Assembly (NCBI GenBank): GCA_046723475.1
Contig: JBKOUQ010000147.1
Location: 23,487-87,486 of the forward strand
Direction: 5' to 3'
Length of the DNA: 64,000 bases
Origin: Candidatus Methylomirabilota bacterium
GTDB lineage: Bacteria > Methylomirabilota > Methylomirabilia > Rokubacteriales > CSP1-6
In this document: one piece after another, positions 22,971-41,342 of the stretch
Layout: the number at the start of each line of letters is the position of its first letter
Position numbering within the stretch: the first letter of the stretch is position 1
Notes under the pieces: generated by a model
Database searches by the model: none
Told to the model about the DNA's origin: nothing
Seen by the model: only the letters and a program-made list of their open reading frames with translations
Program-made: the position numbers and the translations under genes

Positions 22971-23869
22971 CACAGCCGCCAGAACAGCTCGTACAGCTCG
23001 GCCGCGGTCTCTGCGGCGAACATCGCCGGCCGGGCGCGCGCGGCGAACGGCAGGCCGTCGGAGTACCACGCGAGGTGCTTCTTGAGCTGGACGAGCGCCG
23101 GGCGCTCGGGGAAATGTTCTTCGATGAGCGCGCAGTGCCGCCGGATCACGGCCTCGCGCTCCGGCCGCGACACGTCCACACCCCGGAAGATCCACGGTCG
23201 TCCGAGCGCGCCGCGGCCGATCATCACGGCCGCGCAGCCGGTGGTCGCCATCATCGCGCGCGCGTCGTCAACCGACCGCACGTCGCCGTTGCCGGTCACC
23301 GGCACGCGCACGGCTCGCACCACATCGGCGATGATGTCCCACGGCGCGCGGCCCGTATACTGCTGCGACCGCGTGCGCGGGTGCACGGTGACGGCATCGA
23401 CGCCCTCGCTCTCCGCGAGTCGCGCGATCTCCGGCGCGTTCACGGTCCGCTCGTCCCAGCCGCCGCGGATCTTGATGCTCAAGCTGCCCGCCACCGCCTT
23501 GCGGAGGGTGCGAACGATCACCGCGGCGCGCAGCGGATCGCGCATCAGCGCGGCGCCCTGGCCCTTGGCGACGATCTTGGCCACCGGGCAGCCCATGTTG
23601 AGATCGATCCCGTCCGCTCCCGCGGCCTCGAGCCGCCGCGCCGCCTCGGCGAGGACGTCCGGGTCCTCGCCGAGCAGCTGCATCACGAGGGGGCGCTCGG
23701 CGGGCAGGTACGACGTCAGCGCGATCGTGCGCGCGTTGTCGCGGACGAGCGCGCGGGCATCGATCTCCTCGCTGGTCGAGAGGCCGGCGCCGCACTCGCG
23801 TGCGACGAGCCGGAACGGCGCGTTCGTCACGCCGGCCATGGGAGCGAGACGCAGGTCGAGCGCGATCAC
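22967..23869 (-). CDS. tRNA-dihydrouridine synthase (Dus family)
   Basis: LAPMAGVTNAPFR...GADGIDLNMGCPVAKIV...IKIRGGWD are Dus FMN/TIM-barrel signatures with the catalytic Cys. Confidence 0.9.
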   Translation of the reverse strand: MIALDLRLAPMAGVTNAPFRLVARECGAGLSTSEEIDARALVRDNARTIALTSYLPAERPLVMQLLGEDPDVLAEAARRLEAAGADGIDLNMGCPVAKIVAKGQGAALMRDPLRAAVIVRTLRKAVAGSLSIKIRGGWDERTVNAPEIARLAESEGVDAVTVHPRTRSQQYTGRAPWDIIADVVRAVRVPVTGNGDVRSVDDARAMMATTGCAAVMIGRGALGRPWIFRGVDVSRPEREAVIRRHCALIEEHFPERPALVQLKKHLAWYSDGLPFAARARPAMFAAETAAELYELFWRLW

Positions 23870-29333: not shown

Positions 29334-30059
29334 GCGCCCATGCAGACGAACGGGTCGCCGCCGGGTGCGATAGCGGAGATTGAGCATCTCCACGAAGAGC
29401 GAGAACGCCATGGCGACGTAGATGTACGCCTTCGAGATGTGCTGGCCCATGCCGTCGGCGACGAGCACCACTCCGATGAGGAGCAGGAACGCCAGCGCCA
29501 GGATCTTGACGCTCGGGTGGCGCTCGACAAAGCCGGCGATGGCGCCCATCGAGACGAGCATGACGAGCATCGCGATGACCATGGCGGTCACCATCACGGC
29601 CAGCTCATTCGCCATGCCGACGGCGGTGATCACGGAGTCGAGCGAGAACACGATGTCGAGCACGAGAACCTGGACGAGGACGCCCGCGAAGTGGCCGCGG
29701 CCACCTGCCGCGTGCCCGACGTGGTCGACCTCGAGCTTGTCGTAGATCTCCCAGGTGGCCTTCGCAATGAGGAAGAGCCCGCCGCCGATGAGGATGAGAT
29801 CGCGTCCCGTGAGCGGGTGCCCGAGCACCACGAACAGCGGCCGCGTCAGACCCATCATCCACGAGATCGTGAACAGCAGGCCGATCCGGATGGCGAGTGC
29901 CAGCATGAGGCCCACCCGCCGCGCCGAGGCCTGCTGAGACGACGGCAGCCGACCGGTGATGATCGCGATGAAGACGACGTTGTCGATGCCGAGGACGATC
30001 TCGAGCGCGGACAGCGTGACGAGCGCCACGAGGCCGTCGGCGGTCAGGAGCACGTTCAT
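29319..30059 (-). CDS. TerC family integral membrane protein
   Basis: LEIVLGIDNVVFIAIITGRLP...VLDIVFSLDSVITAVGMA are the duplicated TerC motifs. Confidence 0.9.
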   Translation of the reverse strand: MNVLLTADGLVALVTLSALEIVLGIDNVVFIAIITGRLPSSQQASARRVGLMLALAIRIGLLFTISWMMGLTRPLFVVLGHPLTGRDLILIGGGLFLIAKATWEIYDKLEVDHVGHAAGGRGHFAGVLVQVLVLDIVFSLDSVITAVGMANELAVMVTAMVIAMLVMLVSMGAIAGFVERHPSVKILALAFLLLIGVVLVADGMGQHISKAYIYVAMAFSLFVEMLNLRYRTRRRPVRLHGRYEEH

Positions 30060-38772: not shown

Positions 38773-39129
38773 TCAGCGGTGGTATCGCGTCTCGAACAGG
38801 AGCGCGCCGCCAGGACTCGCATACGGTCCGTGGCGCATGCCCGGCGGACGGCACGCGTACATGCCCTCCGAAAACGTTCGGCCGAGCCCGAGGTCATCGA
38901 GACTGCCCTGGACGATGAGCACCTCTTCCCAGAAATCGTGCGCGATGGTCTCCGTCGTGCGGACGCCCGGGGCAAATCGCAACAGCCGCGTCACGTCGCC
39001 CGTGGCCGGATCGCGGCTGAGCACTTTCTGCTCGATCCCGGGACCGCCCGCGCCCGCCGCAGCAGAGCCGGCCACCGCTTCCCAGGGCAGATGATCAGGG
39101 CGGAAAAACTCGAGCTCGGGCTTCGGCAT
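38773..39129 (-). CDS. Cupin-domain protein (ChrR-like cupin)
   Basis: 118 aa with beta-rich sequence ...TETIAHDFWEEVLIVQGSLDD...GMYACRPPGMRHGP typical of small cupins. Confidence 0.55.
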   Translation of the reverse strand: MPKPELEFFRPDHLPWEAVAGSAAAGAGGPGIEQKVLSRDPATGDVTRLLRFAPGVRTTETIAHDFWEEVLIVQGSLDDLGLGRTFSEGMYACRPPGMRHGPYASPGGALLFETRYHR

Positions 39130-39134
39130 GCCGG

Positions 39135-39671
39135 TCAGCGTCGAGCTGGTGACGCCAGCAACGATTCAACGAGCACGTGCGCAGCCGGCGATTCCCACGG
39201 CACGGTCCCGATCGCGCGGCCGACCAGCCGGCCCTCGCGATCGATGAAGTACACCGTTGGCGGGCCCCAGACCCCGTAGATCCTGCCCGCCGTGTCGCCG
39301 CTCGTGTCGAGCAGCACCGGCGCGGTGTAGCGGCGTTCGGCGACGGTTTTTCGAACGAGGTCAGTATCCTCGCGGAACGTGACCAATCGGACTTCGAGCC
39401 CGCGATCGTGATACGCCCGGTAGAGGGCGTCGACGGAAGGCAACGCCTTCCGACAATCCGGTCACCACGTCGCCCAGAAGTAGAGGATGACGACATTGCC
39501 GCGCAGCGCCTCGAGTGTCTGCGTCTTGCCGTCGAGATCGGGCAACGATAAGGCGGGCGCCGGCTTGGGTGGCTCGTACGGCAGAATCTGCAGCGTCTCC
39601 CAGTCGGGCGCGGGCGTCGCCGCCGCCGTGAGCACGAGCACGGCGACGAGCGCCACGAGCGACCGGCTCAT
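39135..39671 (-). CDS. TlpA/ResA-like thiol:disulfide oxidoreductase, candidate selenoprotein (in-frame TGA at 39462-39464 replaces the first Cys of WCxxC)
   Basis: Signal peptide MSRSLVALVAVLVLTAAA, then ...VVILYFWATW-TGA-PDCRKALPSVDALYRAY matches FWATWCGPCR with U-x-x-C. The two track ORFs (39462..39671 and 39135..39443) are in the same frame, separated only by the TGA. A hairpin GGAAGGC-GUU-GCCUUCC starts ~10 nt after the TGA. Confidence 0.6.
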
Positions 39672-40231
39672 TTTGCCCCCGAGGCCTTGAGCGCTTGCAG
39701 CACCTCGTCGGGATTCAAGAGCTCGAGCGGGTTCTGCATGACTTTCGCATAGCGGACGACGCCCTCGCGATCGATGACGAAGTACGCGCGCTTGGCGTAC
39801 CGGTAGATCGGGCTCGCTTCGTTCATCTCCATCGCCCCGTACGCCGGTAGCATCGTGCGCCGAAAGTCCGAGAGCAGGAGGTGCTTCGTGCCGTTCTGCT
39901 TGCTGAATGCCTCGAGCGTTGCCGCGTGATCGGCACTGACGCCCACGACCTGGGCGCCTGCGGCTTCGAACTGCGGCCGGGCCGCGTCGAAGTCCGCAAT
40001 CTCCTTCGCTCAGGTCGAGGTGAACGCCTGGATGAAGGTGTAGACGACGACCGGACCCTTCGCGGTCAGGTCGGACAGCTTTACGGGCGGGGTGTTACGG
40101 TCGGCGGACTTTGGCAGCGTGAAGTCGGGGGCTTTCTCACCGACGGCCAGCGCGTGGGCCGCGCCGGCCATGATCAGCACCCCCAGCACGCCCAACAAGA
40201 CCGCCGCGCACACATGACGTCGTGGTGTCAT
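39668..40231 (-). CDS. Peroxiredoxin (AhpC/TSA-Bcp-like), candidate selenoprotein (in-frame TGA at 40010-40012 at the peroxidatic Cys position)
   Basis: RBS GAGGAGGAG precedes ATG 40231. Signal-like MTPRRHVCAAVLLGVLGVLIMAGAAHA, then ...VVVYTFIQAFTST-TGA-AKEIADFDAARPQFEAAGAQVVGVSAD corresponds to the Prx FTxVCPTEI core. Both track fragments are in-frame. ATGA overlap with the downstream Sec-TlpA gene. Confidence 0.6.
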
Positions 40232-40301
40232 CGGAGGGCTCCTCCTCGGCACAGAGGATCGCATACGCCACAAACCGCCCTCGTGCGGCCGCGGTTCCCG
40301 C

Positions 40302-41342
40302 TTATTTGCGCCCGGTGAGCTCGGCGCGCACGACGGCCGCGCCCGCGGCCAGCCCCGTGAGCTTCTGGTTGCACATGTAGCGCGGGGACCAGCCGAAGCC
40401 ACAGTCGGGGTTGAGCGTCAGCTTTTCGGCGGGACACACCTTGAGCACGCGGCGGATGCGGTTCGCGACGGAGTCCGCGGTTTCTTCCTGGAAGCCCTTC
40501 ACGTCGATGACGCCGGCGCCCAGCTCGCGGCCGTCGCCGTACTTTTGCCAGAGCTCGAGCTCGGAGAGCTCGCGACTCGCGAACTCGAGCACGAACTGGT
40601 CTGCGCGCGCCTTGAGGACACCCGGAAAGTATGGCTCGTACGAACGCGAGAAGCGTGAGCGTCCGAAGCGATTCCCGAAGCAGATGTGGAAGCCTAGCTT
40701 GGCGCGCACGCCGTCGGTGGCGAGGTTGAACAGCCGCGCCATCTCTTCGCCCGACACGTTGCCGCGCGCGGGCTCGTCGAGCTGGATCAGCTGTGCGCCG
40801 GCGGCGACAAGGCCCTTCAGCTCGGCGTTGATGACCTCCGCGAAGCGCTCGGCGACGTCCACCACGCTCTTGTACGCGCTGCCTGGATGGATCCGCGAGC
40901 CGAACGTGAGCGGGCCCGCGCACGTGGCCTTCAGCGCGCGGTGCGTGTGGGCGCGCAGGAACTCGAAGTCGCGCACGAGTCCGAACCCCGTCGACGGCAC
41001 CTCGATGCGCCCGACCGCCTCGTAGCGCTGCTGCTGGTCGTAGCCCCACGGGCCGGCCTTCCGGCGCACGGGCAGCGGCGCGATGTTCTTGATGATGCGG
41101 TAGTACGTGTCCACGTAGCCGTCCGTGCGTCGGGCCTCGCCGTCGGTAATGATGTCGATGCCCGCCGTTTCCATGTCGCGGATGGCGGTGTGCACGGCAT
41201 CGTCGAACATCTCGTCCATGTCGCCGGGGCCCATCTCGCCGGCCTCCCAGGCTTTGACAGCGGTGAACCACCAGCCGGGCTTGCCATGAGATCCGACCAC
41301 CGATGTGGGCAACAAGGGCACTTGGGTCATGCGCGAGATCAT
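40302..41342 (-). CDS. Cobalamin-independent methionine synthase C-terminal (MetE_C/UroD-like) domain protein
   Basis: 346 aa with DGEARRTDGYVDTYY, IQLDEPA and GFHICFGN...NPDCGFGWSP, a MetE catalytic-domain-like Zn site. Confidence 0.8.
   Translation of the reverse strand: MISRMTQVPLLPTSVVGSHGKPGWWFTAVKAWEAGEMGPGDMDEMFDDAVHTAIRDMETAGIDIITDGEARRTDGYVDTYYRIIKNIAPLPVRRKAGPWGYDQQQRYEAVGRIEVPSTGFGLVRDFEFLRAHTHRALKATCAGPLTFGSRIHPGSAYKSVVDVAERFAEVINAELKGLVAAGAQLIQLDEPARGNVSGEEMARLFNLATDGVRAKLGFHICFGNRFGRSRFSRSYEPYFPGVLKARADQFVLEFASRELSELELWQKYGDGRELGAGVIDVKGFQEETADSVANRIRRVLKVCPAEKLTLNPDCGFGWSPRYMCNQKLTGLAAGAAVVRAELTGRK

Follow-up and report, generated by a model that had tools for sequence, protein, structure and literature searches.

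The question raised by this locus is whether two adjacent genes, each holding a single in-frame TGA at a redox-active position, are selenoprotein genes, and what their products would do together. The locus lies on the minus strand of the analysed DNA, a stretch of 64,000 nucleotides (hereafter the window; positions 23,487 to 87,486 of contig JBKOUQ010000147.1, assembly GCA_046723475.1) from a soil Candidatus Methylomirabilota bacterium (Rokubacteria). One gene encodes a peroxiredoxin (Prx), the other a thiol:disulfide oxidoreductase of the TlpA/ResA type. On the comparative evidence described below, both are genuine selenoprotein genes, with selenocysteine (Sec) predicted at the UGA. The pair quite probably constitutes a conserved bicistron of Rokubacteria/Methylomirabilota for two exported selenoproteins, the Prx being recycled by its TlpA-like partner. 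The central features, all on the minus strand, are:

39668..40231, minus strand: Sec-peroxiredoxin gene, 187 codons, BCP/PrxQ-like, predicted 1-Sec type (from translation and Pfam)
40010..40012, minus strand: predicted Sec codon (UGA) of Prx, codon 74, the sole in-frame TGA, in the motif T-x-x-U
39135..39671, minus strand: TlpA/ResA-like thiol:disulfide oxidoreductase gene with predicted Sec, 178 codons, motif W-U-P-D-C (from translation and Pfam)
39462..39464, minus strand: predicted Sec codon (UGA) of the TlpA-like gene, codon 70, the sole in-frame TGA, at the first position of CxxC
39668..39671, minus strand: ATGA stop/start overlap of the two genes (Prx stop TGA at 39670..39668, TlpA-like ATG at 39671..39669)

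For conservation analysis, one genome per GTDB species was scanned, which gave 222 relatives, and the best 80 loci were kept for counts. These best 80 of 222 came nearly all from Methylomirabilota/Rokubacteria, whose metagenome-assembled genomes (MAGs) are the nearest relatives. The codon aligned to Prx position 74 was TGA in 80/80 loci (58–87% amino acid identity). The TlpA-like gene followed directly 3' of Prx in 66/80 loci, and the codon-70 position was TGA in all 66. Identity upstream versus downstream of the TGA was 0.68 versus 0.71 for Prx and 0.61 versus 0.61 for the TlpA-like protein. Independent assemblies from two other samples carried both TGAs (L001) or the Prx TGA (L002). TGA was also the genuine Prx stop in 66/66 pairs. 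Within the 64-kb window, these were the only two in-frame TGAs flanked on either side by coding signal that also had a redox motif. These sequence comparisons rule out errors of sequencing, pseudogenes and a genetic code in which TGA is reassigned, because TGA is conserved in 80 loci, the halves of each gene are equally conserved and TGA serves as true stop.

An earlier note on this DNA had proposed two adjacent selenoprotein genes; orthologues that always carry Cys, with this genome unique and no Sec machinery elsewhere, would in its view suggest pseudogenisation. Comparison of the pair and of Sec versus Cys across relatives bore the proposal out: TGA was conserved at both sites, orthologues did not always carry Cys and pseudogenisation was excluded. 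The TGA was present in 80/80 Prx and 66/66 TlpA-like loci, and each was followed by a covarying hairpin.

Public annotation is broken at the same codons. The closest Prx homologues were C-terminal fragments of 103–113 residues (up to 93% identity), the closest TlpA-like homologues C-terminal fragments of 99–102 residues (up to 90% identity). The fragments begin right after the TGA position, which indicates that public gene calls were truncated at the same codon. NCBI records of Prx relatives were truncated 'redoxin domain-containing protein' entries, and the JGI gene caller broke each selenoprotein gene into two fragments. JGI 'peroxiredoxin' records P0001–P0005, P0007 and P0020 had Trp at the Sec site and again at the true stop, followed by junk tails; Trp at both places indicates that these contigs were gene-called with a TGA=Trp code. 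This choice of code was probably set off by the in-frame TGAs themselves. A further in-frame TGA of the window, at 29935 on the plus strand, has coding-like composition on both sides (context ...RRAEAC-U-DDGS) and is probably an artefact of overlapping high-GC open reading frames (ORFs).

In bacteria, SelB bound to Sec-tRNA(Sec) recognises a hairpin after the UGA and inserts selenocysteine. A candidate hairpin of this kind was located behind each of the two UGAs:

39431..39455 (outer pairs included), minus strand: bSECIS-like hairpin of the TlpA-like gene, 8-bp G+C-rich stem, GUU loop
39958..39999, minus strand: candidate bSECIS hairpin of Prx, conserved core 39961..39995

Both were compared with the published model of the bacterial selenocysteine insertion sequence (bSECIS), which has a loop of 3–9 nt, a stem of 4–16 bp, G in the first two loop positions, a UGA-to-loop distance of 16–37 nt and a minimum free energy (MFE) of ≤ -7.5 kcal/mol. 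The TlpA hairpin agreed with this model on all four constraints. Its stem has 7–8 bp, its MFE is -14.5 kcal/mol, and its loop (GUU in the window, AGUUG in most orthologues) begins 16–17 nt after the UGA. Among 66 sequences, 97% of cells were paired, with compensatory changes at 3 pairs, and the hairpin was found independently by RNAalifold. Codon choice within it is skewed. The Leu codon in the loop was TTG/TTA in 66/66 sequences, compared with 5.7% of Leu codons in window genes, and the Pro codon in the stem was CCT in 64/66, compared with 4.3%, where the codon usage of window genes derives from a crude GC3-based (third-position G+C) gene caller that left gaps. The two sequences without CCT covary with the pairing partner. 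The alignment indicates that synonymous sites of the TlpA hairpin are under RNA-level selection.

The Prx hairpin starts 11 nt after the UGA, with the apical loop from 29 nt after it. Its MFE was -25.6 kcal/mol alone, with a z-score of -2.7 for the 64-nt stretch. Among 79 sequences, 92% of cells were paired and 8 pairs were changed on both sides; pair 27-61 was C-G in 45 and G-C in 19, and pair 38-48 C-G in 61 and G-C in 10. The lower helix was found independently by RNAalifold, and the register of the inner helix shifts between species. For neither hairpin were the observed values matched by any of 500 shuffles (0/500), and slid-register controls were far lower. At gathering thresholds, Rfam yielded no family for the window, and relaxed scanning of the locus gave chance-level matches only; none of the described bacterial SECIS models matched.

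DNA of Cys forms served as control, from L083 and L090 for Cys-Prx and from L084, L089 and L091 for Cys-TlpA. The hairpin was missing or weakened in L083, L084, L089 and L091. The TlpA stem had -5.6 kcal/mol in L084 and -4.9 kcal/mol in L091, compared with -14.5 in the window, and L089 had a different small hairpin in its place (-9.5 kcal/mol). Over the same 60 nt, the two Cys-Prx loci L083 and L090 folded differently, with -16.4 and -18.4 kcal/mol compared with -28.3 kcal/mol in the window; part of the lower Prx stem is still present in L090. At the TGT site of L091, the weakened remnant of the SECIS stem suggests a recent switch.

The Prx gene is preceded by a Shine-Dalgarno-like GAGGAGGAG at 40247..40239. 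The TGA lies in the context YTFIQAFTST-U-AKEI. The translation matched Pfam AhpC-TSA (PF00578) with 1.8e-28 and 99.4 bits (cutoff 26) over residues 30–161, a match that spans the TGA. The best PDB match was BCP 2ywn (1.5e-23, residues 26–182), followed by 2cx3, and U74 aligns with the peroxidatic Cys of both. The Prx also retains the active-site Thr (T71, in T71-S-T-U74) and Arg (R148); the latter (KRAYF) aligns with the Arg of 2ywn (AKRAVF) and is nearly invariant among the aligned homologues. The mature part was without any Cys in 80/80 orthologues. As predicted from this alignment, Prx is a 1-Sec enzyme without a resolving residue, and the Cys-less mature protein would therefore need an outside reductant. 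None of the NCBIfam peroxiredoxin models reached its cutoff, among them PrxU (NF040737, 44.5 versus 270 bits) and Prx-SUH.

The TlpA-like protein carries its predicted Sec in the context FWATW-U-PDCR. Its match to Pfam AhpC-TSA (5.4e-22, 78 bits, cutoff 26) covers residues 36–149 and likewise runs across the TGA; Redoxin, Thioredoxin_8 and Thioredoxin_2 were also over cutoff. Best PDB matches were the Geobacter thioredoxin-family protein 3kcm and ResA 4nmu. In both, the first Cys of CxxC is the residue to which U70 aligns, and the invariant P138 and T139 align with the cis-Pro-Thr of ResA. Each of 64 orthologues scored had exactly one Cys. All equivalog models scored below cutoff (TlpA NF047696, 61.5 of 230 bits; ResA NF002854, 82.8 of 170; DsbE TIGR00385, 43.1 of 123), and the protein belongs only to the broad TlpA-like superfamily.

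The N-termini of both proteins are hydrophobic:

40151..40231, minus strand: predicted signal peptide of Prx, residues 1–27, with cleavage between ...AGAAHA and LAVGEK (read from the sequence)
39618..39671, minus strand: predicted signal peptide or membrane anchor of the TlpA-like protein, residues 1–18 (read from the sequence)

Hydrophobic N-termini were kept in full-length Prx homologues and conserved among TlpA-like homologues. From these N-terminal segments with their AxA-type cleavage sites, present in the orthologues too, we infer that both proteins are exported. A twin-arginine translocation (Tat) signal was considered for Prx (MTPRRH...) and rejected, as the RR is not conserved among homologues.

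The two genes are joined more tightly than any other part of the locus. The earlier note had placed the ATGA overlap at 39668–39671, where it was indeed found. Scoring of 66 junctions (65 related loci and this window) gave an overlap at 65, of which 53 were 4-nt NTGA (ATGA, GTGA or TTGA) and 12 were 1-nt TGATG; one junction had a gap. In about 65 species the two genes have remained side by side with their overlap, while all others around them change. A stop/start overlap kept in this way is the expected signature of translational coupling, and the conserved 4-nt/1-nt arrangement suggests that Prx and the TlpA-like gene are translated in a coupled manner.

The pair also persists through Sec/Cys switches. 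Mixed pairs of Sec-Prx and Cys-TlpA were found at four loci: L084:3462-4531, L089:2238-3331 and L091:252-1340, with WCPPC or WCPDC as TlpA motif, and the contig carrying P0122. Both motifs also occur among aligned Cys forms of the TlpA-like protein; P0121-3 and P0125 are Cys forms. At L083, the Cys-Prx is followed across a 4-nt overlap by a TlpA-like N-terminus. Cys at the Prx site also occurs in the distant homologues P0008 and P0019.

The likeliest function of the pair is a periplasmic peroxide-reduction relay, by analogy a selenium version of the Caulobacter TlpA to PprX pathway. In such a relay, the exported 1-Sec Prx would reduce peroxide via Sec74, which would become a selenenic acid. 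The selenolate of the U-x-x-C partner would then attack the oxidised Prx to give a transient intermolecular Se-Se bond, and Cys73 of the partner would resolve this link into an intramolecular Se-S bond. A membrane reductase of DsbD/CcdA/ScsB type, encoded elsewhere, would finally re-reduce the TlpA-like partner. Under translational coupling, the TlpA-like gene would be translated mainly by ribosomes that have finished Prx and hence have passed its UGA. Coupling would tie the amounts of the two proteins together, and both to selenium supply. The more specific proposal, in which the 1-Sec Prx is recycled through a diselenide between Prx and partner and translation of the reductase is gated by Sec decoding in Prx, is put forward tentatively and is open to considerable doubt.

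Several points weigh against this interpretation. The canonical Pro of PxxxTxxC is absent from Prx, with Ile67 (codon 40031-40033) in its place; the position is Ile/Met/Leu/Val across the whole Prx clade, in Sec and Cys forms alike. Peroxidase activity is not assured, because this Pro is missing. Fourteen loci have a paralogous Sec-Prx with no adjacent TlpA-like gene. The Prx hairpin fits the bSECIS model in stem, 29-nt spacing and MFE, and lacks the loop G: its consensus apical loop (CCU/CCC) has none among its initial two nucleotides. In tblastn searches with E. coli SelA, SelB and SelD, no selA, selB or selD was found in the window, as the earlier note had stated, or in 720 kb of related loci. 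No tRNA was found in the window by ARAGORN, and no tRNA-Sec (selC) there or in 60 related loci. The Sec machinery must be encoded elsewhere in the genome. Because no sel genes were found, the case for this genome's Sec competence is built on the comparative data and on literature at the level of the phylum: a Methylomirabilota MAG was predicted to have 63 selenoprotein genes (PMC13188914), and hydrogenases of the Sec type are present in Methylomirabilota (PMC13582414). Neither the window nor the 720 kb of related loci gave a DsbD/CcdA-like donor (tblastn, E. coli DsbD). The coupling, the transfer of electrons from one protein to the other and its Se-Se intermediate are inferences. The earlier note had described a self-contained relay. 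The relay itself stands as plausible, with a Cys precedent in Caulobacter; its self-contained character does not, as a membrane donor is needed and none was found nearby. A donor of DsbD/ScsB/CcdA type may be encoded elsewhere.

That the TGAs are undecoded (pseudogene lesions, sequencing errors) or read as Trp (genetic code 4 or 25) is hardly credible. Gene callers do break each gene into two ORFs, and some JGI protein records have W at the site; these 'W' proteins, however, also continue beyond the genuine stop as junk tails. Three independent samples and 80 species share the TGA, the two halves are conserved to the same degree, TGA is the true Prx stop in 66/66 pairs, just two in-frame TGAs with a redox motif are present in 64 kb, and Trp in place of the catalytic Cys would inactivate both enzymes. 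Decoding of the UGAs as Cys, by a SelC*-type tRNA (tRNA-ReC) with SelB and the same hairpins, is very improbable. Such tRNAs, which decode UGA as Cys given a downstream SECIS, have been discussed for environmental bacteria (PMC13582414). Relatives nevertheless encode both proteins in ordinary TGC/TGT forms with the hairpin lost or weakened, and this loss suggests that UGA plus hairpin supplies something that Cys does not. In addition, an abundance of selenoproteins has been reported for the phylum, and no tRNA-ReC was found in the window or in 60 related loci.

Both proteins may also be real selenoproteins that form no peroxide relay, which we consider unlikely. The TlpA-like protein would then act on other substrates in the envelope, for instance in cytochrome or copper-protein maturation, as do ResA, CcmG and Bradyrhizobium TlpA, and the Pro-less 'Prx' would be either a sensor or another kind of selenol oxidoreductase. 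The missing Pro, the 14 loci of Sec-Prx without adjacent TlpA-like gene, the failure of either protein to reach any NCBIfam equivalog cutoff and the nearest named relatives of the TlpA-like protein (ResA, StoA, DsbE) are in keeping with this. Yet the protein retains the Thr and the Arg of Prx enzymes as well as their catalytic position, and a mature Prx without Cys requires an outside reductant. The genes remain adjacent and overlapping in about 65 species amid changing neighbours, and the pair outlasts Sec/Cys switches in the TlpA partner. Reduction of a periplasmic PrxQ by TlpA also has experimental precedent (Caulobacter, PMC3322552). The peroxide relay is accordingly preferred as the most likely function, by analogy.

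Further observations were made on the relatives of the two proteins. The lone paralogous Sec-Prx loci include L038, L043, L045, L046, L053, L057 and L058, and also L064, L072, L075, L077, L079 and L081. Many of these Prx carry the motif FTPT-U. Directly 3' of the lone gene, six loci encode an exported protein of ~136 residues and unknown function, and in seven loci a family-5-like ATP-binding cassette (ABC) substrate-binding protein is encoded within the next two genes. The Sec position is occupied by Arg, Leu and Gly in the Prx records P0013, P0029 and P0011, and by Leu in the TlpA-like record P0124. Each of these residues is one base change from TGA, and misassembly, rare variation or decay of the gene copy could account for them. 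The record P0137 has a TlpA-like C-terminal part that runs stop-free into a second TlpA-like N-terminus ending FFWATW-(TGA); it resembles a double Sec-TlpA, fused or in tandem. L029 has a second TlpA-like paralogue with a TGA (L029:7849-8376, minus strand), ~2 kb off on the other strand. TlpA-like genes at L019:5510-6009 and L040:5516-6072, from two long-read MFD assemblies, are split between frames by single-base indels, which are probably assembly errors and not pseudogenes.

On either side, the pair is flanked by genes in the same orientation:

40302..41342, minus strand: MetE-catalytic-domain-like gene (Pfam Meth_synt_2, 1.1e-22), context outside the unit
38773..39129, minus strand: ChrR-type cupin gene (Pfam Cupin_7, 1.7e-10), context only

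These flanks, and a Liv-type ABC transporter upstream, are as described in the earlier note. The MetE-like gene lies 70 nt upstream of Prx and scores under NCBIfam equivalog cutoffs. The cupin gene starts 5 nt past the TlpA-like stop (spacer 39130-39134) and has no NCBIfam family match. In the gene table of the source contig, a JGI metagenome contig of 121 kb, 19 co-directional genes follow each other with gaps of ≤153 nt. The run has a Liv-type binding protein, two permeases and two ATPases upstream, then the MetE-like gene; downstream of the cupin it has a CoA transferase, an enoyl-CoA hydratase, an acyl-CoA dehydrogenase, MaoC and further genes. G+C content is ~69%. A promoter/terminator scan predicted no minus-strand promoter or terminator between the MetE-like gene and the cupin gene, which fits co-transcription.

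Neighbours of the pair were assigned with the GC3-based gene caller, with the gaps mentioned above. The MetE-like gene is upstream in ~30/80 related loci. The cupin is directly 3' of the TlpA-like gene in 7/80 loci, and 2 further loci have it at another place within the retrieved flank; it may now and then belong to the unit as a third gene. Kinases, regulators, binding proteins and others are encoded next to the pair at the remaining loci. As neighbours differ between species, the conserved unit is the bicistron and not the surrounding cluster. On the same grounds, the idea that function ties the pair in a conserved way to the Liv, MetE-like, cupin or acyl-CoA genes was rejected, and the tie to amino-acid uptake and acyl-CoA genes drawn in the earlier note is reduced to local context.

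Why organisms pay for selenocysteine despite the existence of Cys versions is an old open question, for which this cassette offers a compact natural test case. It provides a proposed two-protein envelope antioxidant relay with both catalytic residues predicted as Sec in about 65 species, and natural Sec-Prx/Cys-TlpA hybrids of the same pair are available for comparison. With Sec as the sole redox residue of the Prx, the hand-off chemistry (Se-Se versus Se-S) can be isolated. If the diselenide and gating proposal were true, selenium supply would gate both proteins. Every public gene call seen either cuts at the TGA or reads it as Trp, which points to under-annotation in Rokubacteria. These are abundant soil bacteria, and the under-annotation concerns their envelope antioxidant capacity and the size of their selenoproteome.

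The closest functional counterpart is the envelope peroxide pathway of Caulobacter crescentus, in which electron flow from ScsB to TlpA to PprX was shown experimentally (Cho et al. 2012, mBio; PMC3322552). There, as would be the case here, an exported Prx of BCP/PrxQ type is reduced by an exported TlpA-like protein with electrons delivered via a membrane reductase. The Caulobacter proteins use Cys, and the locus tags (PprX CC1673, TlpA CC2210) suggest that their genes are far apart. In the present locus, by contrast, both catalytic residues are predicted to be Sec, the genes overlap and no ScsB/DsbD gene is nearby; the Prx also differs in having neither the canonical Pro nor any resolving Cys.

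Each protein has known selenoprotein relatives. Sec-containing Prx (PF00578, T-x-x-U) is an experimentally supported bacterial selenoprotein family (PMC13188914). The Prx described here shares its AhpC/TSA fold, Sec at the peroxidatic position and the TxxU motif. It differs in belonging to a clade that is predicted to be exported, lacks the Pro of PxxxTxxU and is of 1-Sec type with no Cys. Among UxxC selenoproteins, Prx-like thiol:disulfide oxidoreductase, thiol-disulfide isomerase-like (cd02966) and Redoxin are predicted families, which go back to Kryukov & Gladyshev 2004 and Zhang et al. 2005, 2008 and are catalogued in PMC13188914. The TlpA-like protein resembles them in its thioredoxin fold with U-x-x-C, and its prediction follows the same logic (TGA aligned to Cys plus bSECIS). 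Those families were described as single genes, whereas the gene found here obligately accompanies a Sec-Prx as its downstream partner. Another motif marks the WAxxUGC family (NF041054), for which the TlpA-like protein scores 61 bits against a cutoff of 300.

Neighbouring or operonic selenoprotein genes are known as well, namely grdA-grdB, Prx/SelW and the SAO and Tso operons (PMC13188914, PMC2398784). One Prx/Prx-like 2 read was reported from GOS data and not analysed further there (PMC13188914, PMC2398784). The present pair resembles these in having two Sec genes side by side for what is presumed to be one redox process, and differs in a stop/start overlap conserved across the phylum. With Sec-Prx and Sec-TlpA/Prx-like families catalogued, neighbouring selenoprotein genes known and a MAG of 63 selenoproteins reported, the word 'unusual' used for the locus in the earlier note is too strong. 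Full-text literature searches gave no description of a conserved overlapping Sec-Prx/Sec-TlpA pair, and none of Rokubacteria selenoproteins beyond the 63-gene MAG count. Both protein families are already known as selenoproteins; what appears to be new is the conserved, translationally coupled Sec/Sec pair.

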